DNA of 64,000 bases, from contig OZ024741.1 of NCBI GenBank assembly GCA_964016885.1, forward strand, positions 170,190,001 through 170,254,000, read 5' to 3'. This document shows, piece by piece, positions 29,442 to 61,210 of this stretch. The translations under genes and the position numbers were made by a program. Under the pieces are notes generated by a model that ran no database searches, had not been told where the DNA came from, and worked only from the letters and a program-made list of their open reading frames with translations. Each line of letters starts with the position of its first letter. The first letter of the stretch is position 1. This DNA is from Eledone cirrhosa. Lineage: Eukaryota.

Positions 29442-30641
29442 CTAGTATTAAAGCCCGGCGTTGCTCGGGGTCATTAAGTTACCAAAGTTAGGTTGCACCA
29501 CCCATTTTATGGCAGCACTTTTTTGTCTGCCAAGCACTGGGTGAATGAATTGCAGACCTGGAAGCAGGAGCTGCGCCAGCAGTGCAATTGTAGTTTCGCC
29601 TATGGATATTATCTCTGTGCAAAAAAGTGTTGAAATTTATTGTTTCACAGTACTTGCGCAACACGTGCGTAGACGATGCCAGCCGAACAACAGAGCTGCG
29701 ATGGAGTTGTTCTGCATGGTTGTCTGTGTGTTTTCTAAATTTAAGACAGTAGGGAGGGTTGTGATATGAGGGAGAGTTAGCTGCTGTTTCTAGCAGGTTT
29801 AGTGACCTCATAGAAGATATGTTTTCTAAATTTAAGACAGTAGGGATGGCTGTGATATGGGGGAGAGTTAGCTGCTGTTTCTAGCAGGTTAAGTAACCTC
29901 ATAGAGGATATGTGTTTTCTAAATTTAGGACAGTAGGGAGTGGTGTGATATGGGGGAGAGTTAGCTGCTGTTTCTAGCAGGTTTAGTGACCTCATAGAAG
30001 ATATGTTTTCTAAATTTAAGACAGTAGGGAGGGGTGTGGTATGGGGGAGAGTTAGCTGCTGTTTCTAGCAGGTTTAGTGACCTCATAGAGGATATTATTG
30101 TTTATCATTATCTATAAAAGGCAGATTGTTGTTGTTGTTGTTAAAGTGAGTGTGTGTTTGTATGCGTTTGGAAAAGAGGTTTTAAAAAAGATTTATCGCT
30201 TGTTGTTGAATAAATGTATCTGTTGCTTTTGAATAATTGTCGTTTCGTATGAAATGTAATAATTTGAAGTATAAAAGAGAAAGTAGCAAAATGTGTGGGT
30301 TGTAGATAGACGAGAGCAGATGATATGACAGAGTAAAACGGACAGTATCACCATCAAGCTTGGAAAGAGAAAGTAGCAGAAAGAGAAAGTAGCAGAAAGT
30401 ATGAAGTTGTATAGATTTTGAATGGTAGTGGAAAGAGTTTAAATGACAGAGAAAAATCGTAAAATATTGAGTTTTATCTATTTTTTGCGTAATTGTGGGT
30501 GAAATTGAAAAAATGAGATGTGCCAAGACGCAATCGAAACTATTTCGAATACTGAATTGTAAATTTCAATTGAAGAAATTCTATATCGTAGATTTCTATA
30601 AGAAAGGAGCATGACCACACACTGAGCTTTATAGATTATGA
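29442..30641 (-). mobile_element. Non-autonomous Helitron
   Basis: The minus strand starts A|TCATAATCTATAAA and ends with the hairpin CCCGAGCAACGCCGGG, 8 nt and CTAG|T. It is inserted between A and T in a TA tract with no TSD. Confidence 0.7.
29730..30095 (+). repeat. Minisatellite, four copies of a 91-93-bp unit
   Basis: GTTTTCTAAATTTAAGACAGTAGGGA..GGGAGAGTTAGCTGCTGTTTCTAGCAGGTTTAGTGACCTCATAGA.GATAT at about 29730, 29821, 29914 and 30005. Confidence 0.95.
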
Positions 30642-32900: not shown

Positions 32901-33856
32901 ATATATATATATATAACTTGCCTCGAGTGAATTATTTTTATATCTACGTACTCTGATGTGTTGATCAGATGTAAATAATTTATTGGAGTTCGATTGACGC
33001 AATTTCAAGCGATTGGCGACATCTAGAGTCACCTGATCAATGAAACAATTGTCAGTACTTGAAATATAGCCCTTTATTGTACAGCCAACCATGTTACTCT
33101 TCATTCTTTCACTATATATATATATATATATATTTTTTTTTTTCAAATTAAAATATAACTTTAAAGAGAGAGAGAATGTGTCATATCGTTTGAGAAAAAC
33201 AGTATTTTGTACACATATAAAAAGCACATAATATTTAGGAAAGCGTACATACTTTAAGATGGATATCCATTATCTTCTCTGTGGCAGATATATGTAAACA
33301 GCTCTTCTGTTCATTCATGGAATAAGAATTTCCAATATAAACTGTTAGGGTTATTGTCCTCGAATTGCTTTTTTCTCGATCACACGCAACATGTCTCTCT
33401 GATTAGTTTATATCTCCGAACAGATAAACATCAGTCGAATGAATTATATGTATGACCCATGGTGTGACTAGAACTCCAATTAAGATATGATCAATACGAG
33501 AAATCGCTTATAATCCAACCAAATGTTGTGTAATATGTCTATGAAAGAAATATACTACGCCGTCAGCGGGTTTCGGATTCTCTTACAACTTGTTGGAAAT
33601 ATAACGTTACAGAGTTAGATATATTTCTTTATTAGTTACAAGGGCGCACAAGAAAAGGGGACAATAAAAAGACATGCCGGGGATTTTACATACAGTCGTG
33701 TAAAAAATATAAAAACAAACAATTACAACAATGAAATCCCCAATAGGGGAGAAGCACCACAAATGGGTTGTTTAATACCCCGTCGATAGAACAACCCTCA
33801 ACTCCAGGAGCGTGTTGTGCAAGTGCTCCTTTCTTCCTTTTGCTCTCTTCTTCAAC

Positions 33857-36800
33857 CTACAGGCTTATAAACAGAGAAGGCCCAATCACTCGGACCATTT
33901 TCGCTTCATTCACCCACCTTTCAGTAAATTTACTGGGGTGCAGTGCCTCTCTCTCCACTCTGATTCTCCTTCTAAAGTGGTACTTAAAGAAGGGAATCAA
34001 TTGTTGTCCGGAGAGAAAGCCATCTGTCCTCAGTCCTCTCAATCTCGTCCACAATATAACTTCTTTCACCATAGCCACTGTACAGAGGAAAACCGCCTCT
34101 CTTTCGTTTTTGAAAGAGGCTGGCGGTTTGATCCTTACTATGGACTCGGCGGTCAACTGGATGTGTCCCATACGCGACAGCAGTTGTTCTGCATAGTTCC
34201 ACAGGTTGGTTACACCCGGGCAGTGTACAATTGCGTGCAGGACTGTTTCAATGTCCTGTGTGCATCTTGGACACGTCCTCTTGGAAGGATCCCTGCCGGG
34301 GCCTTCGTGCCTGTAGATCTTGTCCGAAATGGTGGAGCTCCTCGGTAGCACTGCCCGGCCAGGGACCTCTTGAAGTTGTCCATAGGTCCCGGGCGGAAAG
34401 TGCTACCAAACAGACTGGTGAGCTCAACATCTTCGATGCCAGAGTCTCTCCGAGCACGTCGTCGCCCTTGTAACGTACAAGACCTCTATGGAATCTCCAC
34501 TGATTGCTGAGACCGCTTGCCAGAGGACTGTGAGCGCCTGAGCGCATTCAATGTGCCAGGCGCCCATCGTTTTCGGTCTTTTCTTCACCCAGGACTGCAG
34601 CTCCGTCAGCGAGACGAGCTGTGGGAAAGCCTGTCTCACAAACGGTGCCCACACCGGTGGGAGGTCGGTGAGGAATACCTGGAGATGCCGCAGCCTCAGC
34701 GCATGTTTGCGCATCATCAGCCACGGCATTCCCAGACCTCCGTTGGAAGGGTGCTGACAGCAGACGGATCTTCTCACCAGCGGAGCCTGCTTCTTCCACA
34801 GAAACTGGAAGAGCATGCGTTCCATCTTGGCGAGGTGTTCACGGGGATACGGCACGAGAGTCAAGCGGTAGTAGATGACGGACGCTATGAAAGTGTTCGC
34901 CACCTCCGCTCTACCTTTCAAGGACAGTTTGCCCACTTCTGTGTGAGCGCAAACAACTTGGCCGTGACCTCGTTCCAGTTTTTCTCGACCTGCAGGTCTG
35001 GACCGAACCAGAACCCGAGCAATTTCACCGGTCCGTCCGTCCAGCGTCCAACGACGCTGTCGGACGTCATCAGTTTGCCTCTCCACGTACCGAGTTGCAA
35101 CCCGACAAACTTGTCCGGGTTTAGTTTTGCTCCCGTATGCGTTTCGTATTCTTTCAGTAAGTTGCCAATCACCCCGAGTGCTCTACACCATTACCGTAAC
35201 GTCGTCGGCATAAGCCGACGCTGCTTTGTGCAGGCCTGGTTCTAGAGAGATGCCTTGCAACAGCTCCAATTTCTGCAGTAGAGTCAATACATACAGAATT
35301 GAGGAGAGAGGGTACCCCTGTCGAATGGAACGCGTGATTGCGAACGGCTTCGTTCCGTAGCCGTTCACCTTCACCCTCGAGCAGATGCTGGTGTGCATCG
35401 CCTCGATCCATACCTCTGAAAACGGGGCCGAAACCGGCCGCCTTGAGAACCGCTTCCAAGTATCGATGGTCGACCCTATCGAATGCCTTAGACTGATACA
35501 AATTGATCAGAGCCCCACCGAAGCCGGGTTTACTACCCATCCTCTCTATAATGTATCGTGGAGGTTGTCGTGTATGGACCTGGTCGGGATTGCACACGTT
35601 TGCGCTTTCCCTACCAGGTTCTCGGCGCTAGAAACTTGGCCAAAATCTTTAACTCTGTGTTGAGCAGAGTTATGGGCCTGAAGTTGTTAATTTCGTCCCC
35701 TTTGTTCTCGTCTTTGCTGGTCAACGTTACTACGCCCTTGCCTGCAGAACTCGGAATTCTCCCGTTCTGCTGCCAATTACAGTAAACGGCTTCGAGGCCA
35801 CCACAGAATGCCTATGTAAAACTCATAGGGTAGACCATCTAGACCGGGTGACTTGCGTTTCCCGCAGCGGTCCAGAGCGTCCCGTATATCAGTGTCCGTG
35901 ATCGGTCTTTTGCAGAACTCGGCGTCCGTGCTTGAGAGACGCGGCAGGCCGTCGATGTATGAACTAAAGTTCATTGCCCCGTTCGGCTCACCGTCGTTCT
36001 GCTCAACCAGTCGCGCAAAGTGCTGCTGAAAGGCCGCGCACATTTGCTTGGGGCCAAGTAGCACGCGTCCGTTTTGGTATTTCAAAGACCGAATCGTGGA
36101 CTTGTTGCCACTTTTTGCCTCCGCCACTCGGGCCCAGCTGACAGCTTTCGCTCCTTCGTTTCCCAGAGCACGTGTTTTGCTTCTGACCAGGCAGCCTTCG
36201 TGTTTCGCATCGAAGAACTGGTCCAGTGCCGTTCTCGACGCTAACACTCAAGCTGCGTGCCACTTCTAAGTGCCTCCTCTACCTTGGCTACTAGTTCTCT
36301 TTCTATTTTGTTTTTCTCTTAGGCTAAATCTCTGCTAAACCCTATCTATTCTATTCTAATTGCTTTCTTGAGAGAGTACCTCCATTTATTGTTTACGATG
36401 GCTCCCGTTAACTGTTGCTTGACTAGTCTACTTATCCGTTCACTGTAAGCTTTACGTACCAGCAACGACACGTTCAGCTTCGAGTACCCGGGTCCTTGTC
36501 TATGTGTTGTATCACGGTTGACTAAGCAGACGACTAATTTGTGATCTGATTAGGCAACCATGTGCATTCGTGGACAGCTTAACATCTCCTTGTCCCTTTC
36601 TCTAATGAAGAACCTATCTAAATACGATCTAGATGTCCCGCTGCGGTTTGGCCACGTCCACTGTGGTGCAGTCGGGAAATCCAGTCGATACCTATCGGCC
36701 AGTTGTAATTAGCCGATTAAAGTTTTGAGGCTGTTGCACCCCCCCTCTACTGGGACATGCTCCCACATAGTCCTATCGTGCATCTAGGATACCATTCCAG

Positions 36801-37228
36801 TCCCCCACTAAAAGTAAGGAGCGAGACGTTCCCACAAATGACTCTAGACGCTTAAAGAAGTCTGGCCGTGATTGCGATTGCCCGGTCGGGGCATAAACGG
36901 CCACCAGTCTGAAAGCTCCACCTCCAATACTGTTCATGTCTAGGACTATCAGTCTACCCTTCGGGTCCAAGCGTACTTGCTCTTCTTCGACTTCCAGGTT
37001 CTTCCAAAACATGACAACCACTCCCTCTCCACCTCCTGGCTGACAGAGAGATGCGTCGATCTCAAAGTCGTCGAAGATGGGGGTTAGTTGCTGCCTTTTG
37101 TGGATCCTGGACTCGGTAAGGGTTATCACATCCATACCGTGTGACCTAAGGTCGTTTAAAAGTTGACCCTGTTTTCAGGGCATCCCTAGGCCACGCACAT
37201 TCACGCTTCCAACTCGTAAACTAGCCAT
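33857..37228 (-). pseudogene. LINE ORF2 (apurinic-like endonuclease, reverse transcriptase, zf-RVT-type motif) with several frameshifts and stops
   Basis: MASLRVGSVNVRGL, ITLTESR, VAVYAP, LLVGDWNGILD, KSPGLDGLPYEFY, QSKAFDRVDH, RSIRQGYPLS, AYADDVT, LSLKGRAEVANTFI, GGLGMP and CPRCTQDIETVLHAIVHC. Confidence 0.92.
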
Positions 37229-37269
37229 GTTGGTGAAGAAGTGTTGGTGAAAAAGGACGGAAGGTGCAC

Positions 37270-39055
37270 TTACCTTTTCGTTTCCTGGAGATCGGGTTGT
37301 TCAATCTCCATTTGGGTGCTGGATGGGGTGTCGGGTGGGGCGGGGAAACTTTTCAACAGGACGCGGTTGATGGGTTTCTGGCAGGGGTTGCCCACGACCT
37401 GTGAAAATTTATTTTTCAGGTCATTATAGGTTTCCATAGAAACCCTTATAAGTTTAAGCTGTGGAGACGATTCTGCCTTGACGAAGGTCTTGCCCTCCGT
37501 CTCCACCTTGGGGTTTTGGGAGATGCCCTCCATCAAACTCTTGTTGTTTGTGTTGATGTATGCGTATTGTTTGTATTTTTGTTGTGTTGTTTTAGTTTGT
37601 TGTTCATCCGGGAGTTTTTTTTTTATGGTGGGTGCTTGTGTTTGGGGTCGTGTTGGTGTTGGTTTTGCTGGTAGTGGGATGTTTGACTGTGGTGTTGTTT
37701 GTGTTGTTGTTGTGTCTGTGGTTGTGTGTTGGTGTTGGTGATTGGAGTTTTGTGGGTTTTGTGGTGTCTCTTTTTTTTATTCTTAGATTTCCGCGGTTCT
37801 CCCTCTTCTTCACTTAAAGAAAGAGAAGCAACTTCATACGTGGATGAATAATCATCGTCAAGAGTGTTGGGTAGGGGTAAGTTGTGTGGTGATGGTGTTT
37901 AGGTGTGTGTGTTTGTGTTAGTGTTTGATGGAGTGGGATGGGATGGGGCTGTGTTCTTCAGGGGTGTTGTCTCTGTTTTTTCTGTTGTTGTTGGTTGAGT
38001 GTCTGTTTGTTTCGGTGTGGTTGCTCGTTACGTCTGTCGTTGTACTTGTGGTGGTGGTGGTTATTTTGGTGTTGGTGTTGGTAATAGCGTTTTTTTTAAT
38101 GATGTTGTTTTGTGAATGACAGGAGGCTTTTAGGTGTGCTGTGCTACCACAGCGAAAGCAATGAAATTTTCGTCCTTCTGTCGAAATATTTAATTTGTTG
38201 TCGTCGTCGATGACGATTCTTTCGGGTATTTTGGAGATTCTCTCCGGCCTGATTTGCAACAGAATCTCCAAATCAGTACCCGCCCACCTTTGTCGAACAG
38301 AATTTCGTATCGAAAGAATCATATCAGTTGCTGGCTCTACGAAGCCAGCCAAGATCCACCAGATGTTAATGTTTGGCGGTATGTTTTTTATTTTTATTTT
38401 TTGTATCCTTTTTCCCATGTATGTAGGGGAAAAGGTGCATGATTTTGGCACTATTTGTGTCACAGAATGTTTTGGGGCAAGTGCCTCACTTTTAAAGCGT
38501 ACGGAAACACTTCCGTACTGTTTTCGTCGTTGGAGAAAGTCGATATTTTCTCGAATTTCCTTGAAAGTAGCTTCTATATCTGTTTGACTAACAAATATCG
38601 GCTTTCTCGTGGTATTGGACACAGTCCTAACGGACGCTGTCCTTCGAATTGTGTCTTCTTTTATTTCAAGGGGTGAGTTAATTCCTTCTCTTCGAAAGTT
38701 ACAAATTTTCTCCCTTGCTGGAGCATATCTCTTGCATTGGAGATGTCAAGATTTATAAAATCTTGTTTTTTGTTCACTGTTTCAGCGAAAGACATTTTTT
38801 GTGTGGTGTTGCTGTTGTTGTTGTTATTGTTATCGTTGTTATCCTCGGTGTTGGAAATCTCAGTTCCTTGACGAGGTGAAACTTTATGTGTAGATGTATC
38901 TGTGGAGTTGTTGATGTTTACTTTTTCATGTGTATGTATCTTAATGTGTTTAATTCCTGAGTTTTCATTTCTCTCCGCTTCGACGGTAGAAATTGTACAA
39001 TCTTCAAGTGGCAATATTTTTTTCCCTCTGTTGACAGTCGTATCTATGGCGGCAT
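37270..39055 (-). pseudogene. LINE ORF1 (gag-like, CCHC zinc knuckle), frameshifted
   Basis: SFAETV motif, CFRCGSTAHLKASC in ORF 37918..38622 and a Thr/Asn-rich tail. It lies directly upstream of ORF2. Confidence 0.8.
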
Positions 39056-40160
39056 ACCATTGGGAGCGCCCCGGCTCCACCGCCTCGCCAATCAAGTTCC
39101 TCCAATCGCTATCAGAGGCAACCGGGATGGACGCTCCACTCGGCTGGTTAGGCGGCCGTTTCTCTAACGACCCTGCAGAACGGGTAGGGGACTGTTTACA
39201 GTATTTCTTTTTATTCCTTAGATCGCTCCTTTTCGAACTAATCTGTTTCACAGTCTTTCCGGGCAGGAAAGGAGCGATCCCAAGATTGACACGACGACAC
39301 CCCGCCCTAAGAAGCTCGTCCTCCTTCTCGAGAAGGACCGAGACCTCCTGCTCGGACCAACAACCACGGCCAACCCGGGTGCGGGGCTGCCCAGCTCTCT
39401 CACGAGAGGCTGCAGCAGCAGCACGAGAGGCACGCTTCTTTCCGATTTCCTCTGCGTGTTTCGCGATCCTGCGGCGATTGGCCACCACTGGATGGCGATG
39501 TCTCTCGTGCTGTGATCTTCCTGCGACCGTACGAAAAGTACGGTTGCACTCTCCGCACCTGTGGATCAAGTCCGAGACGGCGGGCATGTCGTCCCATCTC
39601 CTGCCCGTACATCGGCCCACGTGCACCCGGAGCGAATGCAGGTGGCAACTTTCCCTACCGCATTTGCTGCACCTAAAAACTGCCTTTCGCTCATGACAGC
39701 GCAGCAAATGCTCCGCCCAACCAGACGGGCCCGAGAAAGTACGCGAACAGCACGAACAAAACAAGACTACGCTCTTACACGGAATCTCGAGACAGTCCTT
39801 CCCCGCGACTGTTTGCCCAACCTCACAGACAGAGTCCATGGGGTCGCGCGCGAGCCACGACGGCAGTTGCTTGCCTCTCAAAACCAAAGCGTGGGTTGGG
39901 TACTCCAGAGTAAATTTATCGGGTGTATCCCTACGAACTAGTATAGTCGGTATTTGAAACCTCCGGTGGGTCAAATCCAGTGAGCCGGCGCTCTTACGAG
40001 GAACATAGCCCGGCTCTTTGCCAGTCCTCGGAGACAGTTGCCAATCGCAGCGGGCCATTACAGAACGCTGCGACAGGCCGGAGGGACCCATCCCATTCCC
40101 TCCGGCCACTGGTTTTTCGGCCCCCAGCTGCCGTATGGACTTCAAATTTTGTGTCATCAT
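38661..40160 (-). CDS. Chimeric ORF: R2 N-terminal DNA-binding region (three zinc fingers and Myb, about 370 aa) fused in frame to the first ~130 aa of the Tx1-like ORF1
   Basis: CSCCSRTFSGPSGWAEHLLRCH (CCHH), CSKCGRESCHLHSLRVHVGRC (CCHC), CGECNRTFRTVAGRSQHERHRH (CCHH) and Myb-like WSEQEVSVLL..IAPFLPGKTVKQISSKR. There is an abrupt GC-rich to AT-rich shift near 39055. Expression is unknown. Confidence 0.75.
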   Translation of the reverse strand: MMTQNLKSIRQLGAEKPVAGGNGMGPSGLSQRSVMARCDWQLSPRTGKEPGYVPRKSAGSLDLTHRRFQIPTILVRRDTPDKFTLEYPTHALVLRGKQLPSWLARDPMDSVCEVGQTVAGKDCLEIPCKSVVLFCSCCSRTFSGPSGWAEHLLRCHERKAVFRCSKCGRESCHLHSLRVHVGRCTGRRWDDMPAVSDLIHRCGECNRTFRTVAGRSQHERHRHPVVANRRRIAKHAEEIGKKRASRAAAAASRERAGQPRTRVGRGCWSEQEVSVLLEKEDELLRAGCRRVNLGIAPFLPGKTVKQISSKRSDLRNKKKYCKQSPTRSAGSLEKRPPNQPSGASIPVASDSDWRNLIGEAVEPGRSQWYAAIDTTVNRGKKILPLEDCTISTVEAERNENSGIKHIKIHTHEKVNINNSTDTSTHKVSPRQGTEISNTEDNNDNNNNNNSNTTQKMSFAETVNKKQDFINLDISNARDMLQQGRKFVTFEEKELTHPLK

Positions 40161-40351
40161 AATTTAGGCACCAATTAGTTCGTCATTAATGTGGCCGACC
40201 AACCGAGAATGGTAGAACCTGCCGAGTCAACACTGACCACCGCAAAAAAAAAAAAAAAAAAAAAAAAAGGGAAGCGGGACAGAGCTGCCTCTCTCGTACA
40301 GCTCAAAACCACTGACTTAAGCTCTCTTCCCACGCCAAGGGTGGTGCCGAC
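39056..40351 (-). mobile_element. 5' portion of an R2 retrotransposon (three-finger, R2-A-type) inserted at the canonical 28S site
   Basis: 28S ends ...GGGAGTAACTATGACTCTCTT at 40352, where the canonical continuation AAGG|TAGCCAAATG is the R2 target. A same-strand ZF-ZF-ZF-Myb ORF follows 190 nt later. Confidence 0.93.

Positions 40352-40360
<9 letters not shown>
40167..40360 (-). ncRNA. Putative HDV-like self-cleaving ribozyme spanning the 28S/R2 junction
   Basis: P1 is 28S-derived (GA)CTCTCTT with AAGAGAG(CT); P2 is GGCACCA (40348-40342) with TGGTGCC (40173-40167); P3 is CCC/GGG with the 7-nt loop TTGGCGT; J4/2 CTAA precedes the P2 3' strand; the P4 region is long. Confidence 0.65.
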
Positions 40361-40390
<30 letters not shown>

Positions 40391-40406
40391 GTTGAATTTC
40401 TTCACT

Positions 40407-40438
<32 letters not shown>

Positions 40439-42442
40439 CGCGTCTATGCGGCTCGGCCGGCTACGCGATGCTCTGTTTTAATTAGACAGTCGGATTCCCC
40501 CGGTCCGTACCAGTTCCGTGTTGACCGTTCGCCGCCAGCCGAACGCCTGCCGCGCGTCTCGGCAACCGCCCTCCTCCTCGCGAACAAGAAAGAAAGGAAG
40601 CTAACCGACGCGCCAACGAGCCCGAAGTCGTGTCGCTCCGCGGTGTCCCGGGCGTGGAGCCGTGTTGTTCGCGCCCACTACGCATCGAACGTCGCAAAAA
40701 GCAACCGACCGAAACGCCTCTCCAAGCCACCCGTTTTTGTTTCCGACCGACAAAAACGAAGAAAACGAAGAAAAAAAGACGACGACGACGCGCGAGCCGC
40801 CGGCACTGCGATGAACAGTAAAGGAAAGAGAAAAAAAAACCGAAAGAACAAAACAAAAGCGAGCAGAAAAACGAAAAAAAAAACAAACCGCCCTTGCGAG
40901 CGACAAGCCTCTCCCTCCGTCTACTGCTACGCCTTCATCCCTCCTCCGCGGTAATCTTTCAACAAACCCCGTCCGCCTCCGCGCGACCAACCCGCAGCCG
41001 CCGCCGCCTTCTTCCTCTCTCTCCTCGCCGCCAACCGAAAGAAGGGCAAGGAAAAACGAAACGAACGCAAACGAAACGGGCGCAAATCGACCACCCGACC
41101 GACGCTCGAACGTCGAGTCCGACGCCAACGCTACAGCCCCGTACCGGTTCACCGCTTCGCGTACAGACGTGCCGCGCGACCGATCCCGAGTTTTTGGAAA
41201 AAAACAACAAGACGGCCGACAGGCCGACACACACACGGCCCGACCGACCCGGTCCTCGGAGCCAATCCTTCTTCCGAAGGTACGGATCCATTTTGCCGAC
41301 TTCCCTTACCTACATTGGCGCTATCGACGAGAGGCTGTACACCTTGGAGACCTGCTGCGGATGGTGGGTACGGACCGACTCGAGAGCTGCGAATCGTTAC
41401 GGACCCGGATTTTCCAGGGCCGCCGAGAGCGCAACGGACGCCGCCCGAGACGCGGCGCTCTACAGGTACCATATCCGTATCTCCGGACGAGCCGATTCCA
41501 CGGACGCGGTCCTTTACGAAGAAGAGAGAACTCTTCCCGGGGCTCCCGGCAACGTCTCCGGGCTCGCTTGCGTTGCCGCTGCTTCGCCCGACCGCCGGCT
41601 TCGATGACGCGACGACGCGTTAAATCCCACCGACGGACGAGCACTCTCCGAGTTCGGGTTCGGGAATATTAACCCGATTCCCTTTCGATGCAAGGCCGGC
41701 CGTAACAAAAACAGAAGAAGCCAAAAAAAAAAAAAAAAAGGGTTTTTTTTCTTTTTTTTTTTTCCTCTTTCTCGACAACGGATCCGGCGCCTTTCGTACA
41801 AGCTTTCGCCCGCTTCTTAGGACCTACTGACCCGTGCTCGACCGCCGTTGGCACGGAACCCTTCTCCACTTCGGTCTTCGAAGGTCTCGTTCGAATATTT
41901 GCTACTACCACTGAGATCTGCACCCGCGGTCGGCTTCACCCGGGCTCACGCCCGCGGCTTCCGTGCACGCCGCGGCGCCCTCCTACTCGACCAGGCATCG
42001 AAGAAAGTTACGTCGTGTTACCTTTTTTCGCCTATCGCCTGGCCGGTCCGGCATCGGTCGCTCGCTCCAGCGCCATCCATTTTCGGGGCCGGTCGATTCG
42101 GCAGGTAAGTTGTTACACACTCCTGAGCGGATTCCGACTTCCGTGGCCACCGTCCTGCTGTCTATATCGACCGACACCCTTTCGGGGATCTAATGGGCGA
42201 AGCGTAGGGCACCTTAGCCGGACGTTCGGTTCATCCCACATCACCAGTTCTGCTTACCAAAAGTGGCCCACTTGGCACCGTGCCTTCGTCGCCGAAACGG
42301 CGGCCGCCTCCGATCGGGAGAGAGAGCGGCCCGTTTCGCCCGTTCCGAGTTCGAGAGTAGATCGAGGCCGTCAACGTCCCCGGGGCCTCCAGTCGTTCGC
42401 TTTACCGGACGGAATTGCGTGTCGTTCTGTCTGCTGCTGGCG

Positions 42443-42485
<43 letters not shown>

Positions 42486-43989
42486 CGGCTCGATTGGTCT
42501 TTCGCCCCTACACCCGGTTCCGACGATCGATTTGCACGTCAGAGGCGCTTCGGACTTCCACCAGAGTTTCCTCTGGCTTCGTCCCGACCGGGCGTGGATC
42601 GCCATCTTTCGGGTCCCCGGCCGCCTGCTACACCTGAGTCGGAGCGCGCCGCGCCGACGGCCCGAAAGCCGCCACGCGACGCGCACACCCGACCCGGGAA
42701 CGATGCTTCGAAACGCCTACGACGGCGCGGAAAAAAGTAGAAAAAAACAACAGCGACACCACCCGAAGGCCATGCCGCATGCCGTCAATTCAAACCAGCC
42801 CCTAACGCCGCCGTCGACGACGCGTCACGTTCTCGCTTTCACTTCGCCGTCGGAGTTCGTTAAATTCGATTTCTTTCGCTCCAACGACTCGCAACCGACT
42901 GGGACTCCTCGGTCCGTGTTTCAAGACGGGTCGGGTAGGTTGCCGATGCTCGTCGCAGACCTGCAGCAGCGGACGGCTCGCGATCCTCGTCCACCCAGCG
43001 ACCCGCTCCCTCCTGCTCCGCAAAGAGAGCAAAAGAGAAAAAGCAAACGGGGCGAGCGAACGAGGCGGCCGCTTTCTCGAAAGCCGATCGGAAATTTTAA
43101 AGGATATTTAAAAAAACCAACCTAAGCATATACGAACGGCGCTGCGGCTGATAAAGGAACACGCGCGTTTGTCCCGTCCCCGCCTGTTAGCCGTTCCTGG
43201 GACGATGAAAACCACCGCCGAGCGACGGGCCCGGTCGAGAGAAGCGCTGTTTTCGGAAACCCGCTTCGAAAGCGAACCGGGAACGGTTCGTTTTCTAGGC
43301 GGGACGCCGCTCTGCGACCTGCGGACACCGCGCGCCATCCAGCCTGACGGGAACGGGTCGCGACGACGGATCGAAGGGGAAGTGCGTCCGATGCCGGCAC
43401 CCCGCGAATCGTAACGCCGGCGAGGCGGTCGGCGGTCGACTCGTCGAAACGAGAGACCGCCGCCGACGCGATCGCCGACGACGACGGCGCCTTAAAACAG
43501 CAGCGGACTGAGTCCCCTCGCGATCGCGGTGAACGGTCCTACTCGTTTAACTCCTGGGCGGTTTCACGGTCTCTTGAACTCTCTCTCCAAAGTTCTTTTC
43601 AACTTTCCCTCGCGGTACTTGTCGGATATCGGACTCGTCCCGGTATTTAGCCTTGGATGGAGCTTACCACCCGCTTTGGGCTGCGTTCCCAAGCAACCCG
43701 ACTCTCGGGCCGAAGAAAGAGACACTGTCGATCGCCGCCGGCTCCGAATGGGCCTGGCACCCGCTTTGGGCAGCCCCGATCGAGGGGACTCCGAACCTAG
43801 CCGGGCGAAACGAACGACCGTGTACGACCCTTGCGCCACAGCTCTCGACGACCTGCTTGCGGACGACGAGATTCAGCGTTGGGCTCCTCCCAGTTCACTC
43901 GCCGTTACTAAGGGAATCCCGGTTGGTTTCTTTTCCTCCGCTTAGCGATATGCTTAAGTTCGGCGGGTAGTCGCGTCCGAGTCGAGGGC
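40352..43989 (-). rRNA. 28S: 28S rRNA gene, 5' part only (truncated at the R2 site)
   Basis: ACCCGCCGAACTTAAGCATATC, GACCCGTCTTGAAACACGGACC, AGCTGGTTCCCTCCGAAGTTTCCCTCAGGATAGC, CGAAAGGGAATCGGGTTAATATTCC and GTGATTTCTGCCCAGTGCTCTGAATGTC occur in the correct order with large expansion segments. Confidence 0.97.
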
Positions 43990-47106: not shown

Positions 47107-49200
47107 TCTTCCGCACGAAATACAAAACGACGACCGAGAACAGAAGCGCATGGAGGTGGCTGCAGCGAATTTCATCTCGTCTCGTTGTAGGCGGAATGAG
47201 AAAACGTAACAGAAAAAAAAAATACGGAAATGTCGGCAACCGGTCCACGAGCCGGTGGAGGTAAGAAACGAAGAGAAAAGAAGAAGGACGCGGCGCTGCG
47301 CGTTTGGCGGCATTTACTCATCAGATCATCTCCACTCCCAGCGACGTCGTCGACAAAACGGGCGTATACGAAAACAAGTCGCCCGCCGGCTGCCGGCCAA
47401 TCGTTTAGTCTTCTTTCTCCTCCTCGGCGGCGGCGATGAAAGAAAAGAAAAGAAACAAACGAAAACGAGCTCGCAAGACGGTTTACAATCCGATGGCATC
47501 GCACGAAGCCGCTTTCGAAAGCGTTTCCCTGGGCGTAAGTGCGAGCTGAGGCGTCATGCAGGGGCGGCAGCAGCATGCGGCCTCGAAGAAGAGGAGAGAG
47601 ACAAGTAGGCGGCGCCCTCCGCTTTCGATTCAACAGCTGCTGTCGCCGTTACTGCTACGTAAAAAGAAATCGGTTCGACATGGCGACGGAATGCGGTCAA
47701 CGGAAGAGAGTTAGGAAGACGACGACGACGCGAAAAGCGCCGCCGCGTAACCTAACGGCTAGTTATGCCGGGGCAAACTTGGACGACGCCGACCCGATAA
47801 AAGGCAGCGGCGCAAGCAGGGACACCAGGACTTGATGCCAGTGTCCCTTCGGGAGGGACGACGCCGCTTTCTTTCATAGATATCGCGTCGCCGTTGGCAA
47901 AACGAGGGTAGCTACGGATATACCCAAGCCCGCCGCGGCAGTGGCGACGCAACGCGAGGTCAGCGGCATGACCTGACCGGGTTCACGACGAAAAGCCGAA
48001 ACCTTCGTCGCAGCAAGGAAGAGTGACGCGCGTCGTCGCCGTCGTAGATCGTCGTCAAACGCATTGCAGGGCATTTAGGCGTTGCTCCTACATTAAAATG
48101 ACGGCTATTACGACGGACGCGTACCTACTGCTGTGACGGAAAGGCGGCGGTTCGGAAGGCGGATAATCGTCGAGGCCGAGGGTCGGCGAGCGAACGAACG
48201 AACGAAAAAAAAAAAAAAGAGGTGAGGAGGAAGCGGCGAGGCGTTCGGCGAAAAGGTTTTTCAGACATTTTACGCCGACCGGGCGGGAAGGCGTTCGTTT
48301 TTTGGCGTCAACCGAGGAGTAATTTGCGTTGCTCCAGCGGTAACGAACGTCTTCGTCGCAGCAAGGAGGAGTGACGCGCGTCGTCGCCGTCGTAGATCGT
48401 CGTCAAACGCATTGCAGGGCATTTAGGCGTTGCTCCTACATGAAAATGACGGCTATTACGACGGACGCGTACCTACTGCTGTGACGGCGGAAAGGCGGTC
48501 GTTCGGAAGGCGGATAATCGTCGTGGCCGAGGGTCGGCGAGCGAGCGAGCGAGCGAACGAACGAAAAAAAAAAAGAGGCGAGGAGGAAGCGACGAGGCGT
48601 TCGGCGAAAAGGTTTTTCAGACATTTTACGCCGACCGGGCGACAAGGCGTTCGTTTTTTGGCGTCAACCGAGGAGTAATTTGCGTTGCTCCAGCGGTAAC
48701 GAACGTTTTCTATCGTGGGTCCGGTCGGGCGACGGCGGCGGTCTGAAAAGGCAATTCTTTTGCCGCGACGGAAGCGCAATCGAAAGGCGGATCACAAAAT
48801 GCGGCTAGCCGTCGAAAAGGATAAAAAAAAGAAAAAAGAATAGGCGAGGAAAAGGCGGCGCGAGGAGGTTCGGCGAAAAAGGCTTTCAGAACTTTTACGT
48901 CGCCCGGACGGGAAGGCGCTCGTTGTTGGCGTCAACCTAGGAGTAATTTGCGTTGCTCCAGCGGCAACGAACGTCTTCTATCGTGGGTCCGGTCGGGCGA
49001 CGGCGGCGGCGGCGGTCTGTAAAGGCAATAATTCGTCGATGGCGGCGTGTACGGGCTGTAACGTGAGGGCGGGTCGTGGACGAGGACGACATCGCATATA
49101 GGGTATCCGAACACGCCTAACCCGTAACCTACGCAGTAAACCGAAAGCTGCAACGGCTAGCACCCTTCCGTTCACTAAGCTCGTTCGACCGAGGTTACCC
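47107..49200 (-). other. 5' external transcribed spacer with ~350-bp tandem duplication (48003-48350, 48351-48706) and a partial third copy (48841-48975)
   Basis: Lies upstream of 18S and the repeats are directly visible. The start is inferred from the promoter-like motif. Confidence 0.75.
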
Positions 49201-49235
49201 TATATAATAGACAGGACCCCCTGGCCGTGCTGCAT
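49195..49235 (-). promoter_or_regulatory. Putative RNA polymerase I gene promoter / initiation site
   Basis: Minus strand GCAGCACGGCCAGGGGGTCCTGTCTATTATATAGGGTA. It is the most 18S-proximal of three identical blocks, and TATATAGGG matches initiation motifs known from other rDNAs. Not mapped experimentally. Confidence 0.6.
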
Positions 49236-49984
49236 CCTCCGGAATCGTTGCAAATCCCCCAAGGGCGATCCGCCCGCCACGGGTCGGCTGCGGAACCGCC
49301 TAGACGGCGGGTTGGCTTCGATCCCTCTGTCGATGCGGGACCTAGAATGGCTAGAGAGATAGAAGGCGGCGTGTCGTCGGCGAAGCTGCACCACTTCGCC
49401 GTTCGGGCGTCGTCGTCGGCTGGATTCCCCTGCAGCCACCGCGGGTCGGACGCGGCCGACTCGGCACGCATCAACGGCGGAACGTTTACCGGGTACGAGG
49501 CGGAAGGCGGAAGGCGTCGTGTCGCGTGTACACGCCGTCTTGCCGCATCTCTTTCCCGGCAGCTACTCGCAAAAGTACGGGTCGGCGGCGGAACCACCTA
49601 GCCGGCGGATTCGATTACTTTCCGCCGTCTACACGGGGCCTCCCCGAAGGAAGCTAGTTGGCGGCGTGTTGTCGTCGCGTCGATGACCAAGCTACTCCAC
49701 GCTGCCGTTCGGGCGTCGTCATCGGCGGCTGGATTCCCCTGCAGCCATACGGGTCGGAGGCGGCCAACTGGGCACGCCCCTTAAAGGCGGAACACGCATC
49801 GGAGGTGGAGGGCGGGCGTTAACGTGCAGGCGGGGCGGACGAGTTCTAGACGGCATGTCGTCGAGGCGGAGACATCCGTCATAGCATAGGGTAAGCCGGC
49901 ACGTACCCGTCTTGAAAACGGAATATTCACGACTCTCAACGGGTAGCACCCGGAATCGTTTTCTTCGAGCTCGTCCGATCAAGC

Positions 49985-50025
49985 CTACCCTATATAATAG
50001 ACAGGACCCCCTGGCCGTGCTGCAA
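49985..50025 (-). promoter_or_regulatory. Putative Pol I spacer promoter 1
   Basis: Identical ~38-bp block to 49196-49233. Confidence 0.55.
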
Positions 50026-50881
50026 AATCCCTACTCGGTGGTATTCCCCGCAGGCGTTTCGCAACCCTACGGGTCGGCGGCGGATCCGCCTCGCCGGCGG
50101 GTTGCGAACTTTCTCGCGATCGAAGCGAGAAGGCGTGAACGAATAAAGGAATGTTTGCCGGGTTCGAGGCGGAAGACGGAAGGCGTCGTGTCGCGTGGCG
50201 GAACTTCGCGTATACACGCCGTCTTGCCGCCTGTCTTTCCCGGCAGCTACTCGTAAAAGTACGGGTCGGCAGCGGAACCGCCTAGCCGGCGGATTGGATT
50301 TCTTTCCGCGATCGAAGCGTGAAGGCGTGGACGAATAAAGGAACGTTTGCCGGGTTCGAGGCGGAAGACGGAAGGCGTCGTGTCGCGTCGGGGAACTTCG
50401 CCTCGCTTCGCATATACACGCCGTCTTGCCGCCTGTCTTTCCCGGCAGCTACTCGTAAAAGTACGGGTCGGCGGCGGAACCGCCTAGCCGGCGGAATGGA
50501 TTTCTTTCCGCCGTCTACACGGGGCCTCCCCGAAGGAAGCAAGTTGGCGGCGTGTTGTCGTCGCATCGACCAAGCTACACCACGCCTCCGTCCGGCCGTC
50601 GTCATCGGCTGGATTCCCCTGCAGCCACACGGGTCGGAGGCGGCCAACTTGGCACGCCTTAACGGCGGAAACACGCATCGGAGGCGGATACGGAGCGGAG
50701 GCGGAGGGCGGGCGTTAACGTGCAGGCGGGGCAGACGAGTTCTAGACGGCATGTCATCGAGGCGGAGACATCCGACATAGCATAGGGTAAGCCGGCACGT
50801 ACCCGTCTTGAAAACGGAATATTCACGACTCTCAACGGGTAGCACCGGGAATCGTTTTCTTCGAGCTCGTCCGATCAAGCC

Positions 50882-50922
50882 TACCCTATATAATAGACAG
50901 GACCCCCTGGCCGTGCTGCAAA
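50882..50922 (-). promoter_or_regulatory. Putative Pol I spacer promoter 2
   Basis: Identical block 897 bp further upstream. Confidence 0.55.
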
Positions 50923-52139
50923 ATCCCTACTCGGTGGTATTCCCCGCAGGCGTTTCGCAACCCTGCAGGTCGGCGTCGGTTCCGTCTCGCCGGCGGGTTG
51001 CGAACTTTCACGCGATCGAAGCGAGAAGGCGTGAACGAATAAAGGAACGTTTGCCGGGTTCGAGGCGGAAGACGGAAGGCGTCCTGTCGCGTGGCGGAAC
51101 TTCGCCTCGCGTAACTTCGCCTCGCGTCGCGTATACACGCCGTCTTGCCGCCTGTCTTTCCCGGCAGCTACTCGTAAAAGTACGTGTCGGCAGCGGAACC
51201 GCCTAGCCGGCGGATTGGATTTCTTTCCGCGATCGAAGCGTGAAGGTGTGGACGAATAAAGGAACGTTTGCCGGTTTCGAGGCGGAAGACGGAAGGCGTC
51301 GTGTCGCGACGGAAACGTCGCCTCGCTTCGTGTATACACGCCGTCTTGCCGTCTGTCTTTCCCGGCAGCTACTCGTAAAAGTACGGGTCGGAGGCGGAAC
51401 CGCCTAGACGGCGGATTGGATTTCTTTCCGCGATCGAAGCGGGAAGGCGTGGACGAATGAAGGAACGTTTGCCGGGTCGTAGGCGGAAGACGGAGGGCGT
51501 CGTGTCGCGTCGGGGAACTTCGCCTCGCTTCGCGTATACACGCCGTCTTGCTGTCTGTCTTTCCCGGCAGCTACTCGTAAAAGTACGGGTCGGCGGCGGA
51601 ACCGCCTAGCCGGCGGAATGGATTTCTTTCCGCGATCGAAGCGGGAAGGCGTGAACGAATAAAGGAACGTTTGCCGGGTCGGAGGCGGAAGACGGAGGGC
51701 GTCGTGTCGCGTCGGGGAACTTCGCCTCGCTTCGCGTATACACGCCGTCTTGCCGTCTGTCTTTCCCGGCAGCTACTCGTAAATGTACGGGTCGGCGGCT
51801 GAACCGCCTAGCCGGCGGAATGGATTTCTTTCCGCGATCGAAGCGGGAAGGTGTGAACGAATAAAGGAACGTTTGCCGGGTTCGAGGCGGAAGACGGAAG
51901 GCGTCGTGTCGCGTCGGGGAACTTCACCTCGCTTCGCGTATACACGCCGTCTGCAAAGGCCCTGGACGGTCGTATTCCCCGTAAGCTTACGGGTCGGCGT
52001 GGGAAAGGCCATACAGTTACGCGTTCGCCACCGCCAACTGACGTTTTAGTGACAGCTTGATTTCGGACCTTTTCTGAGGAAGTGTGGCTACCCAGCTCGC
52101 TACCGCATCCTAATTCTTATCGATCTTGAGGTCTGGTAA

Positions 52140-54530
52140 ACTTCAAAGAGCAATTTCACTAGTCCGTTTTTCGAGCGTCCGGCGGCGTCGTTGAATTGAA
52201 TGGTGCCGAGTTGCAAACCAACTTTTCCGGGTTCATTTTTGCTCCCGTCAACCTTTTATATTCTTATAAGAACGTGCCAACCAACACGATTTCCTATATG
52301 TTCGACACCATTACGTTGATATCGTCCGTATATCCACGGGTGGGACGCCACGCAACAGTTCCATCTTGAGAGTCAATACATACAGAGAACAAAGGAGAGA
52401 TGGTACCATTGGCGGACAGCTTACATGATTTGAAACGGTCCCGTAAGGTGGTCATTTACTTCCACCACCTAGCAGATTCCGATGTGCATTACTGCAATCT
52501 AGCCTCTGAAGACGAAACCGAAGCCATCTGCCTTAGGTACAGCCTCCAAATATCGCTGGTCGGCCCTATCGAAAGTTTTTGCTTGATCTAAATTGGCCAT
52601 AGACCCACCGAAGTTATGTTTATTTCCCTCTCTTTTATATATCGCATGAAGTGGAGGTTGTCGTGTATGGTATGGACCTGATCAGTATTGCGCATGTTTC
52701 CACATCCCCTATCAGACCCTCGACAATATGAACCAACCTATTCGTTAGCACATTGGCGAAAATCATAAACTCTAAGTTTAGGAGAGTTATGGGCTTGGAA
52801 TTGTATATAGAGTTCCATTCTCACATTTCCATATCAGCGTTACCGGCTCACAGGACTCGGAATACACCCGTGTTGCGGCTTGCTGCAGTAGACCGCTTCG
52901 GAGACATTAGAGAACAATCTGGCATATCTTGGTAAAATGTGTAGGGCTGACCATCTAAACCAGGTGACTTGCGCCTATCCTTAATTTCGCCTTATATTAT
53001 CGGCCCTTCGCAGCACTCAGCATCAGCTGGTGAGTGTCATGGGATGACATCGAGGTAGGAACTGAATTTCGCTACTGTCTCCGAAACCCCTGCACACCCC
53101 GAACAGCTGAGCAAAGTGCGGGCGAAAGGCCGCACACTTCTGTCAGGAATCGTTTAGCACGCTTTCGTCTCGGTCTGTCAAAAACCGAATCGTGTTTCTC
53201 TTCCACTCGGGCTCATCGAACAACTTTCGTTACCCTGTTTCTTAGAGCACGCTCCTTAGCCCTGACAATTCAACCTTCATGTGTCACATTGAAGAAATGG
53301 TCTCATGCCATTCTCGCCGTTAGCACATCAGTTGCAATGCCACATCTAATCGTCTCATCAAATTTAGCTAGCAGCTCCCCCTCCTTTCTATTGTTTCTAT
53401 TACTACTTTTTTTTATTAACACCTAATCAAACTACTTTAGTCTCTCTGTTGAGAGCACATAACTACCAGTTGTTGACAACTCCCCTGTCAACTTATATTT
53501 CACTAAAGTAGTGACCATATCTTTGTAAAGTGTACGCACCGGGAACTACGTGTTATTCTTCCAATAGCCAGGTCCTTGACTACATGTTCTATCTAGGTCT
53601 ACCATGAAGATCACTATTTTCTGACATAACGAAAAACTATATATGATCTAGATGACCCTAATTGGTTGGTCCAAGTCAACACCGGCGCGTTCCAGAAATC
53701 TAGTAGAGTACCTGTCAGAGAGTTGGAACTCACTGATCAGGTACTTGAGGATTTTGCACCTTAAGAAATCCGGTCGCCCGGTTCCGATCGGGGCGTAGAC
53801 GGTCATCAGTCTAATGGCACCCACTTCACTATTGCTCACGTTAAGGACCACCAACTTCTCCTCCGGGTCTTGTAAGATTCTTCCTACCTCGAAATTAAGG
53901 CTTTTCCAAAACAGCACTACTACTATGCCTCCTATTCCAGGCTGACTAAGAGATGCGAAGATCTCATAGTCCTTTAAATGGAGGCTATTGCGCACGTTTC
54001 CAACATTCTGACCTACCTAGGTAATGGAAGTCACATCTTTATCTACTGGTCGTCCAGCTAGCGATCTTTCTTCCATGACGACCACAGTACATGATCATTT
54101 AAGTATTCTACTTGCCATGTTGGCTGGTTGATCAAGAGAAAAAAGATTTACTTACACTCCGGCGTTTGTGGCCGTCGGTTGGTTCCACCTATGGGAAACC
54201 CTTTAAAAGCTTGAACCTGGCCTTTACATTAGGTGTTCCCAAAATCACGTGGAAAGCCCTCCATACTCTCTTATATGTACCCATCGTCATACCGTACCAT
54301 CATAAGGTCTTTCGGTACTCTAAATGTGTGTGTACCAAAAATATCCCACTTTTTTAGATTTTTTGCTTCGTGCTATGAGGACCATTCGTTTTTCGTTCGC
54401 CCTTCTTACGGACACGAAGTTTTCTGTTAGTGTTCTTTGTTGTTGTTGTGCTTGATTTCGGTTGGGTGGTTGTGGTAGTGGTTTTAGTGTTGTTGTGGAT
54501 GTGTCTTTTGTTTATTTTGTTTGTGGTGTG
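52140..54530 (-). mobile_element. Older degenerate Tx1-like LINE related to 33622-39055 (ORF1 tail, APE, RT), broken inside the RT region
   Basis: ORF 53648..53995 (EIFASLSQPG..VVVLFWKSL..GAIRLMTVYAP..RPDFL) aligns by eye to 36773..37135. Also FGGSMANLDQ..FDRADQRYLE at about 52540-52610, YTDDINVMVS at about 52305-52332 and GAKMNPEK at about 52225-52248. Confidence 0.85.
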
Positions 54531-54584
54531 ATATTCACATACGTCTTGACAGACTAAACAACAAAGATGACAATAATAATGATA

Positions 54585-55123
54585 ATAATTGTTTCTACTT
54601 TAGGCACAAGGCCAGCATACCCAGTTCATTACTGGTACTTTATTTTATCGACGCCGTAAGGATGAAAGGCAAAGTCAACCTCGGCGGGATTTGTATAATA
54701 ATGATATTTGTTTCTACTTTAGGCACAAGGCCAGCAATTACCCAGTGTATTACTGGTACTTTATTTTATCGACCCCGTAAGGATGAAAGGCAAAGTAAAC
54801 CTCGGCGGGATTTGAACTCAGACTGTAAATGGACGTAAATATGCTGGAAAGCATGGTGTCCGACTCTCTACCGATACTGCCAATCCACCGCCCTATATAA
54901 TAATGATAATAATGATAATAATGATCTAGTATAGGCACAAAGCCAGTAATTTGGTGGAGGCGAAAGTCGATTAAATCGACCTCAGTAAATTACTGGTTCT
55001 TTATTTTATCGACCCTGTAAGGATGAAAGGCAAAGTTAACTTCGGCGGGATTTTAACTCAGACCGTAAAGGGGCGTAACTCTATGCTGAAAAGCATGGCG
55101 TCCGACTTTCTATCGAAACTGTC
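54585..55123 (-). mobile_element. Three tandem SINE copies
   Basis: 54585-54691 (partial), 54706-54893 (full length) and 54930-55123 (variant). Confidence 0.88.
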
Positions 55124-58799: not shown

Positions 58800-61210
58800 A
58801 GAGTAGGCTTATTCATCTACGATACGTATGCAGAGTGGTTCACATTGTACCAAGGTAAGCAAATGAGTTATCATAATTCAAATTTGTGCCATATACAGTG
58901 GAGGGGACAGGGGGTGTCCGTACCCCGGCTGTTTTTGCTAAACATGTCACACTTACCTGGAGATTCACTTTTGTTGAGGTACAACCAGTCTTCTTCATGC
59001 TGATTGTTAAACCAAAGATCCTATAGGCAAGCAAGAAGCTGTTCATCAATTCTTGTGCCCCTTCGAGGGATATTGCAGCAAGTGCATCATCATCAGCAAA
59101 TAGTAAATAGCCAATAACATTTGTTCGTGCAATCGTTTTAGCCTTAAAGCACTGATGGTTGAATGGCCCATCTGATTTACGGAATTTAAATCCGACATCA
59201 GTGTCTAAGTCGTAACATGTATAATGGATCATTACTTAGAATAACAAAGGCAAGAGAAAAGGAAGTATGACACAACTCTGCTTCGTACAGTTTGATATAC
59301 CAATTTGACATAATTCATGCTTTCATGCTCTCGTGAAAAGACACGATAATATTCAATACATTGTCAGGTATGCCAAACTTTTTTGAGGATTTTCCATATA
59401 GCCTTGCGACAGACAGTGCCAAAGGTTTTGATCAGATCAACAAAAACCATAAACAGCTCCTGGTTCTTTTCATGAACCTTCTCTGCAGCCTGGCGAAGGG
59501 AAAAAATTATGTCAATAGTAGCCCTATCAGTGCGGAATCTACATTAATTTTTTGGGGTTAGATATCATCAATAATTCTGGATGCAATTCTGTTGAGAATG
59601 ACATGAGAAAATACCTTACCAACAATGCAGAAAAAGGTAGATGATGAGAGAGTTGTCACAGATATATTTTCACCTTTTGCTTGAACAGAAGTATCTCTGA
59701 AATATTTTCCAGAAATAGCCGAAGAAGCTTACGAATTTGACTATCACATCTGAAAATTGAAGGTGCGATTCCATCTTTACTAGGAACTTTAATGGATGAT
59801 GGCTGCTTGATAAAGGCTTGTACTTTATTTTCAAGCTTGGATTGAATGCTAATCCGAGTGTCCCTGATCTTTGTGGGATAGAAGGTACATCTTTCTCCAC
59901 GTTTGACTCACCCTTTAGGACATTTTCAAAGTTTTCCCTCCACCAAAAGAGTATTTCAGCTTTGTCTGTGTTTCAGGTTGTACACTCAGATGATAAAACT
60001 GGATTTGACCTGCTCTCCCTTCAGACCATTATAAAAGGCCATTGAGTCCTTTTTATCAGCAGCATCTTGCAGTTAAGCTATTTTAGCTGCCAACTAGGCA
60101 TCCTTCATCTTCTTACCAGCTGCTTACATTCGTTATAGGTTTTCCTTGCAGTGGTTGAGTTTTATCTCAAATCCAAAGCCTATGTAGGCTGTGCATCCCG
60201 CTGATAAGTTTCTAGAGATCTGAATTGCTTTCATCAAATCAGTACTTGTGTTTTCTCATAGGAAATGTTAAGATTTCTACGGAGGCTGCATAGTTGGCAT
60301 CTTCTAGGAAGCCACGATGTCATCAGAAATCTGGACAGAATCGAAGAGTGAGCCACGTTTTGCATATAGAATAGTAAGCCACTTGTTTTGCATTCCAGTC
60401 TCCTATCAGTGGATCTTAAAGTGTCTACATCCACCTTGGGTGAGATAGGAAAATTTGAAGATGCCTTTTGTTGGGTAAATTTAATGAAACCTTACTCTGC
60501 AGCAGTGCATAATCCGAGATATAGCAAGAAGGGTGAAAAGAGTGAGTGGTTTTAAAACAATTTAGGTGACACCTGCTTTTAACGTCTTTGTCAATCATGT
60601 ACCAATCATTTGATTTAAGATGCATCGGTAATTTCCTATGGTTTACAGGTTGTTGAAAAAAGCTATTAGTGATGCTAATTCCTTGCAGAGTGAAAGCAGC
60701 CAAAGATAAACTGAGTCTATAGCTCCATTAAACCCAAGGACGTCATGCCATGTTTGATCGGCATTTCCAATTCTAGCATTGAAATTTCTGATTATGGTGA
60801 GCTTGTTCTCGTAGGGGAAAGTGGGGACAATGGTCATAAATTGTTTCTATACCCTGCTCATATAAATACAGAGATGGGGCGCATAACATAGGTATTGTTT
60901 GCTAGTTTCTGGGAAAGAGTCATGATATGATCAATAGCTCGTTTGAGGAATGGTATGGATTTATCAATGTCAAATCTGATGACAAACCCAACACCAGGTA
61001 GACCGTGGTCTCCATCAATTTTTCCGTACTAGAAAACTATGTATTCTACTCATACCTCTACATTTGGAATGTCCCAGGAAGTCGAGTTTCACTTACAGCG
61101 CAGATATTAGTATTATATCTATTGAGCAAATTGCAGATGAGGGCTAATCTTCGTCAGTCATATGAATCGCTCTCCCAGAGTGTTCTTGCATTCCAGGAAA
61201 TAAAAGTTAA
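58800..61210 (-). mobile_element. Decayed RTE-clade LINE (APE and RT)
   Basis: FISWNARTL, AVSETRLPG and FNARIG (APE); FRKSDGPFNHQCFKAKT..LLFADDDAL..FGLTISMKKT (RTE-type RT). Many stops. Confidence 0.85.

Follow-up and report, generated by a model that had tools for sequence, protein, structure and literature searches.

The 64,000-nt stretch of Eledone cirrhosa DNA analysed here (contig OZ024741.1, positions 170,190,001 to 170,254,000; the window) carries, on its minus strand, the 5′ end of an R2 retrotransposon. Of the element, the window contains no more than the ~1.3 kb at its 5′ end. The account that best fits the data, to which we assign a probability of roughly 85% as a whole, is that of an Eledone-type lineage-A R2 seated at the canonical 28S site, now an inert copy, in a partial rDNA unit that was joined at the DNA level to older LINE sequence. 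The features on which this account rests are collected in Table 1.

Table 1. Features of the rDNA/R2 block and the adjoining LINEs, in window positions.
Feature	Position	Strand	Remarks
R2 retrotransposon 5′ fragment (5′ UTR and ORF N-terminus)	39045..40351	-	3′-truncated
R2 ORF N-terminus	39045..40160	-	372 stop-free codons; two Met codons right after the ribozyme
ZnF3 (CCHH)	39758-39693	-	
ZnF2 (CCHC)	39671-39609	-	predicted co-fold with ZnF3
ZnF1 (CCHH)	39557-39492	-	
Myb domain	about 39371-39201	-	structure matches
Predicted HDV-like ribozyme	40167..40358	-	descriptor match; covariation by eye
Ribozyme P1	40358-40352 with 40328-40322		first strand is the last 7 nt of upstream 28S
Ribozyme P2	40348-40342 with 40173-40167		
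Ribozyme P3	40341-40339 with 40331-40329		L3 40338-40332
Ribozyme P1.1	G40336-C40321		core pair
Ribozyme P4 region	40316-40182		135 nt; holds 26-nt U run
Ribozyme catalytic C (predicted)	40178		
18S	47106-45310	-	Rfam
5.8S	44761-44603	-	Rfam; same unit as 18S
28S, Rfam segments	43967-41326 and 40488-40322	-	Rfam
28S, 5′ two thirds	40352..43967	-	ends 4 nt before the canonical R2 nick site
Intergenic-spacer-like tandem repeats	49200..52020	-	units ~192-202 bp; upstream end of the rDNA block
L1-Tx1-like LINE, decayed, adjoining the R2 break	33620..39044	-	3′ end near 33620 by eye
Second L1-Tx1-like element, more decayed	52023..53614	-	cut inside RT by the rDNA block

An Rfam scan shows one rDNA unit in the 64-kb window; it lies on the minus strand and is partial, the remainder of its 28S being absent from the window. 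True 28S identity stops at 40352, the four bases AAGG that precede the nick site are missing, and the first base of the element is 40351; the 5′ junction thus lies at the canonical 28S site, where the earlier note on this DNA had placed it, with the same first base and the same missing AAGG. The downstream 28S target motif named in that note as the end of a full-length copy does not occur on either strand of the window (0 matches), and there is no 3′ junction into downstream 28S here because the R2 copy is truncated. In the 18S, ~140 nt (46305-46166) stand in place of Rfam model positions ~646-1279 (~630 positions), a gap that takes out the conserved central domain. This domain is essential for a working 18S, and the unit as assembled therefore cannot make one. 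A second, shorter oddity in the 18S lies near 46660. The tandem repeats at the upstream end of the block are, judging by their position, rDNA spacer; three TATA-like promoter-type motifs were seen in them by eye (near 50890, 49995 and 49205), and the presumed ETS contains a 356-bp duplication (48003-48710, minus strand). By eye, the 28S expansion segment is closer to the E. cirrhosa row than to the Octopus rows of Table S2 of Hassan et al. (PMC13188248), and a protein of Argonauta hians is among the 7 matches to the flanking LINE, both in agreement with the cephalopod host that had been proposed from the letters, and more precisely with an octopod, probably Eledone.

The reading frame of the fragment is open throughout, as the earlier note had stated; none of 20,000 base shuffles left a frame of 372 codons free of stops, and the stretch 40160-39057 alone encodes 368 residues. 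A six-frame search of the whole window with the finger pattern CxxC-x12-H-x3,4-H/C gave five matches, of which three are the R2 fingers and the other two are translations of AC microsatellites. Pfam found no Myb domain in the R2 ORF and only weak zinc-finger matches, and the Myb was recognised from structure, its model giving c-Myb/TRF-like matches with an rmsd of 1.1-2.5 Å over ~50 residues. The N-terminal ZnF1 and Myb domain that mark R2 are therefore both present, and the CCHH-CCHC-CCHH-Myb arrangement noted earlier is upheld, for the fingers by the motif scan and for the Myb by structure.

A phmmer search of 177,635 PDB sequences returned three matches at E ≤ 0.01, all of them vertebrate R2s (zebra finch/turtle), with E-values from 9e-16 to 3e-12. 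A HMMER search with the fragment gave 265 proteins at E ≤ 0.001. Among the best 150 of these, 38 are at least 900 aa long, and the Y/FADD motif was found in 30 of the 38 and the zinc-knuckle/RLE pattern in 24; RVT_1 was present in 23 of 26 homologues drawn from the same 150 and scanned, and the CCHH-CCHC-CCHH pattern is common to 57 of 72 alignment rows. A word-indexed homologue search among longer proteins scored 0 of 8000 candidates, which is weak evidence. One R2-like match of 1462 aa (P0045) has a three-finger/Myb N-terminus, no RVT_1, a weak endonuclease/phosphatase match at 964-1028 and no match to octopod L1-Tx1-like proteins; it may be a similar truncation chimera elsewhere.

A fold search with the whole model gave high rmsd values because the domains are flexibly linked, and the first two fingers (ZnF3:2) were therefore modelled alone with AlphaFold2 (pLDDT 87). 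This model superimposes on R2Tg and turtle R2 (three PDB entries) with Z 7.5-7.7 and an rmsd of 2.2-3.2 Å over 62-67 residues, and on R2Tg alone with 2.2-2.3 Å over 62-63 residues, the next fold having a Z of 3.8. R2Tg of zebra finch (PDB 9dou, 9nl3) and the R2 of Platysternon (9nl2) belong to lineage A and share with the Eledone fragment the ZnF3:2 co-fold (predicted here), ZnF1, Myb, the 28S target and a ribozyme P1 drawn from upstream 28S; their N-termini are ~30-35% identical to that of the fragment.

The fragment is an R2, and it is likely to belong to lineage A. As the copy has no RT, the lineage is argued from the finger pattern and the predicted fold rather than from phylogenetic proof. 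The CCHH-CCHC-CCHH fingers are necessary for lineage A and not sufficient, since Hassan et al. (PMC13188248) describe three-finger R2s also inside or near lineage D and regard finger number alone as not diagnostic; the co-folded ZnF3:2, which these authors give as a lineage-A feature and which our predicted model contains, also occurs in some R2s near lineage D. Of the R2-A label in the earlier note, the lineage-A-type N-terminus stands, both in its fingers and in the ZnF3:2 model, and the use of three fingers as a hallmark does not. The same paper places molluscan R2s in the 3-ZnF branch as well as in the other one. In a quick ZnF-Myb tree without a lineage-D outgroup, P0001 groups with P0002-P0004 at 98% SH-aLRT. 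Utopia elements target U2, have no Myb domain and are not at the 28S site; the fragment has both the Myb and the 28S junction.

Cephalopod R2s are already published, so the copy adds no new host lineage, and the novelty that the earlier note had held open does not survive. Table S2 of Hassan et al. 2026 (PMC13188248) holds nine molluscan R2 rows, six of them cephalopod, with one finger (by eye) in Sepiola atlantica and Sepia lycidas and three in Octopus vulgaris, O. sinensis, O. rubescens and Eledone cirrhosa. The E. cirrhosa element (R2-1_ECi, row 186) is 3818 nt long; it has an ORF of 995 aa and is flanked on either side by 28S. By hand count over table text truncated at 400 characters per entry, ~247 of 299 aligned residues are identical between it and residues 71-368 of the fragment (~83%), which comes close to the near-identical catalogued family that the note had said would remove the novelty, and the first 83 nt of the two elements differ at eight positions (~90% identical). 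R2-1_ECi shares with the fragment the 5′ junction without AAGG, a U-rich tract, the double Met after the ribozyme and the order ZnF3-ZnF2-ZnF1-Myb. It differs in being full length, whereas the fragment is without RT, RLE and 3′ UTR, and in having, by eye, a more decayed 5′ end: its ORF begins only at fragment residue ~71 and the cysteine spacing of its ZnF2 is altered, while the 5′ end of the fragment is cleaner. One P2 pair also differs between the two and is compensated. The ~17% divergence, the many conservative differences and this compensated pair make it probable that the fragment represents a sister family, or an element of a congener, and not the R2-1_ECi family itself. By eye, seven changes at conserved 28S positions in ~165 nt of flank were seen beside R2-1_ECi, whose copy appears to lie in a decayed rDNA unit, which makes dispersed rDNA units plausible in Eledone.

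The three Octopus elements (R2-1_OVu, R2-1_OSi and R2-1_ORu) have three fingers, a Myb and the 28S site, as in the fragment, and by eye the same ribozyme core, with L3 starting UUG and the same P1 3′ strand; their proteins are clearly more distant, their 5′ UTRs are longer and their P2 and P3 pairs are different. The O. vulgaris repeat annotation has one R2 family (PMC13282606), and the first molluscan R2 was that of oyster, of subclade R2A3, in a paper whose available text has no octopus (PMC5035012). A literature search for R2 retrotransposons and Octopus returned only piRNA work, and cephalopod R2s were found in the supplementary table only, not in the main texts, as available, of PMC13188248, PMC13580325 and PMC5035012.

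The junction can be folded into a putative HDV-like ribozyme whose P1 would pair the end of the upstream 28S with the 5′ UTR (Table 1) and whose cleavage is predicted 11 nt upstream of the nick site (-11). The 5′ HDV-like ribozyme of R2s is thus present as a predicted fold, from a post hoc descriptor and covariation judged by eye. Searched on both strands, the 64-kb window gives one match to the descriptor, and 2000 shuffles of the 251-nt junction give none; the significance of these figures is inflated because the descriptor was written after the fold had been seen. The minimum-free-energy fold of the junction recovers P2 and P3, pseudoknots being beyond the method, and is not better than those of shuffled sequences (z -0.98; 36 of 200 as good). 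An Rfam scan of the junction gave six matches, of which only 28S is credible, and no HDV-like family. A C at ribozyme position 1, as predicted here, is unusual.

Comparison, made by eye, supports the fold better than these tests: five of the nine molluscan rows of Table S2 (E. cirrhosa, the three Octopus and the scallop M. varia) carry this core, and their P2 and P3 covary. In the octopod and scallop rows P1.1 appears reversed, with a G in L3 and a C after P1, beside a U-U. In the row of the mussel L. fortunei, again by eye, the P1 3′ strand is unchanged and P1.1 is the usual CC/GG, which fixes the register. The double-pseudoknot topology predicted here is that of the CPEB3 and HDV ribozymes, from which it differs in its 135-nt P4 with a U tract. 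The P1.1 of CPEB3 also has one G-C pair and a U-U (bioRxiv 10.1101/2022.09.22.508989), with C22 paired to G37, the reverse of the arrangement here. The U tract itself (40244-40269) is a homopolymer and is inherited, since a similar, interrupted tract occurs in R2-1_ECi.

In zebra finch the ribozyme cuts at -28 (PMC3774820), as against the -11 predicted here. An alternative P1 with the -28 region was considered and rejected: the complementary 7-mer, found by eye, lies inside P4 and has no adjacent P3/L3 or P1.1. Cleavage within the 28S would account for the missing AAGG; R2s that cleave 9-36 nt upstream have uniform junctions and pass on 2-7 bp deletions of the 28S (Eickbush et al. 2013, PMC3774820). 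Such fixed deletions are inherited and R2-1_ECi also lacks AAGG, so the missing bases do not argue for youth, as the earlier note had taken them to. We consider it somewhat better than an even chance that a molluscan R2 ribozyme subtype with reversed P1.1 and cleavage at -11 has been drawn correctly, in fold and site, and is undescribed. A thin literature check found no description of this variant: the available text of PMC13188248 has the word ribozyme in its references only, and -11 is not among the sites named in that of PMC3774820.

Similarity to R2 is lost near 39045. The frameshift-aware alignment with the nearest homologue runs out at 39051, and GC content drops across the break from 0.66 to 0.40. 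Searches of the window for the continuation of R2, with the best 150 homologues and five C-terminal pieces as queries, found no R2 RT or endonuclease and gave only weak cross-matches, to L1-Tx1-like RT. The LINE joined at the break has an ORF1-like part, with a low-complexity N-terminus and a CCHC knuckle near 38160, and an ORF2 (37228-33860, minus strand) with APE, RT and zf-RVT. A homologue search with the ORF1 core gave matches in 0 of 307, and the APE piece had no match among PDB sequences. ORF2 is broken by 9 stops and 11 frameshifts, a count from which 2 stops that appear in both of two alignments have to be subtracted. This LINE and a second one upstream are presumed from domain layout, rather than a tree, to be of the L1-Tx1 clade; no third copy of the kind was found in the window. 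Octopod L1-Tx1-like LINEs (e.g. Argonauta hians protein P0156) have the same APE, RT and zf-RVT and are 62-71% identical to the flanking elements in the tested stretch; both copies in the window are broken. Both ends of the 13-kb rDNA/R2 block (52023 and 39045) adjoin same-strand copies, which share 64% identity.

The R2 frame runs on in frame for 127 codons into the ORF1-like N-terminus (38661-39044), ending at a stop at 38661, and 3 of 20,000 shuffles were free of stops over this length. Gene finders would call a chimeric ORF of 500 aa across the R2/LINE join. Elsewhere in the window, a further heavily decayed LINE, RTE-like by eye and with APE and RT remnants, lies at ~58850-61200 (minus strand), with weak RT cross-matches at 59380-59640, and the flanks hold a tandem repeat of 91 bp together with copies of a dispersed, SINE-like repeat of 121-139 bp (29727-30096, 54576-54814, 348-618).

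The R2 part and its neighbours have decayed to very different extents. No lesions were found in the 372 codons of R2. The downstream ORF2 has 13 in 880 codons, apart from a further 5 in the APE part, and the upstream LINE has 29 in 521. Had the R2 part decayed at the downstream rate, 5.5 lesions would be expected in it (P about 0.004, from one pair of elements and with GC differences ignored). The rDNA-R2 block is younger than the flanking LINEs. To this extent the youth that the earlier note had read from the open frame holds; the same frame gives no evidence of an active family, because the copy is truncated and lies in a defective rDNA unit. An origin of the 13-kb block by RNA template switch was rejected, as the block includes spacer repeats upstream of visible promoter-like motifs.

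By analogy with R2Bm and R2Tg, and with second-strand synthesis and target-primed reverse transcription (TPRT) as described in PMC3774820 and PMC13580325, an intact member of this family would be co-transcribed with the 28S by Pol I and its RNA released ~11 nt upstream of the nick site by the HDV-like ribozyme, with the last 7 nt of upstream 28S forming P1. ZnF3:2, ZnF1 and Myb would bind the target, the restriction-like endonuclease would nick it, and the RT would copy the RNA by TPRT. The retained 28S bases could then anneal upstream and prime the second strand, handing on a junction without AAGG. Later, a partial rDNA unit, from the spacer to the 5′ part of the 28S, would have been joined at the DNA level, at either end, to L1-Tx1-like copies older than itself, costing the R2 its RT, endonuclease and 3′ UTR, along with the remaining 28S. 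The present copy is capable of none of the enzymatic steps and, as far as its assembled sequence goes, is dead.

Two other accounts share with this one the identification of the fragment as R2. The truncation and the 18S deletion could be assembly errors at a collapsed rDNA array, in which case a full-length and possibly active R2 exists; we regard this as unlikely. Assemblies often truncate rDNA-nested R2s (Hassan et al., PMC13188248), the R2 part has no lesions, and CpG in the rDNA is not depleted (observed/expected 1.4-1.5). However, the window contains no N gaps, the unit is single with microsatellite-rich unique DNA on either side, and the apparent decay around the catalogued E. cirrhosa copy points to dispersed units as a plausible setting. 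No more probable, in our estimate, is the retrotransposition of a 5′-truncated L1-Tx1-like element into the R2, followed by deletion of the remaining R2 and 28S. L1-Tx1 families have been recently active in O. vulgaris (PMC13282606, Table 1), and the LINE is 5′-truncated within ORF1 at the junction with an intact-looking 3′ end, as TPRT would give. Yet decay has gone further in this LINE than in the R2 that it is supposed to have entered, there is no return to R2 sequence beyond its 3′ end, no target-site duplication surrounds it (the longest shared word is 8 nt and lies inside the LINE), and the upstream LINE is broken on its 3′ side, a break that TPRT cannot make. Since the block is younger than its flanks, the DNA-level join of a dispersed rDNA unit is favoured over such a nested insertion.

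It is highly improbable that the sequence was a once-mobile hybrid, with an R2 ribozyme and a ZnF3:2-ZnF1-Myb module fused in frame to the ORF1/ORF2 of an APE-type L1-Tx1 element, which if true would be a natural swap of a targeting module between LINE clades. The 127-codon run-on is what this would produce, but a join has a 1 in 3 chance of being in frame, ORF1 is frameshifted near 38700 and ORF2 heavily broken beside a clean R2 part, the ORF1 pieces match none of the best 150 R2-like proteins, and there is only one copy in the window. That the fragment is instead a host zinc-finger/Myb gene or a Utopia-type element beside rDNA by chance has a negligible probability: the weak generic Pfam matches, the empty search among longer proteins and the similar co-folded fingers that Utopia proteins can carry would allow it, but the junction at the R2 site, the Myb absent from Utopia, the PDB matches to R2 only, the superposition of ZnF3:2 and the 28S-flanked relative R2-1_ECi refute it.

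The preferred reading, an inert lineage-A R2 end joined at the DNA level to older LINEs, has small discovery value, since three-finger R2s are already published for four octopods, Eledone included, and the copy has lost the enzyme half that a gene-insertion tool would need. Its 5′ end looks better preserved than that of R2-1_ECi, which makes it a good probe for a full-length Eledone R2. The molluscan ribozyme variant is the only part that may be new; if the octopod and scallop fold is right, it bears on the length of upstream 28S needed for precise 5′ joining.
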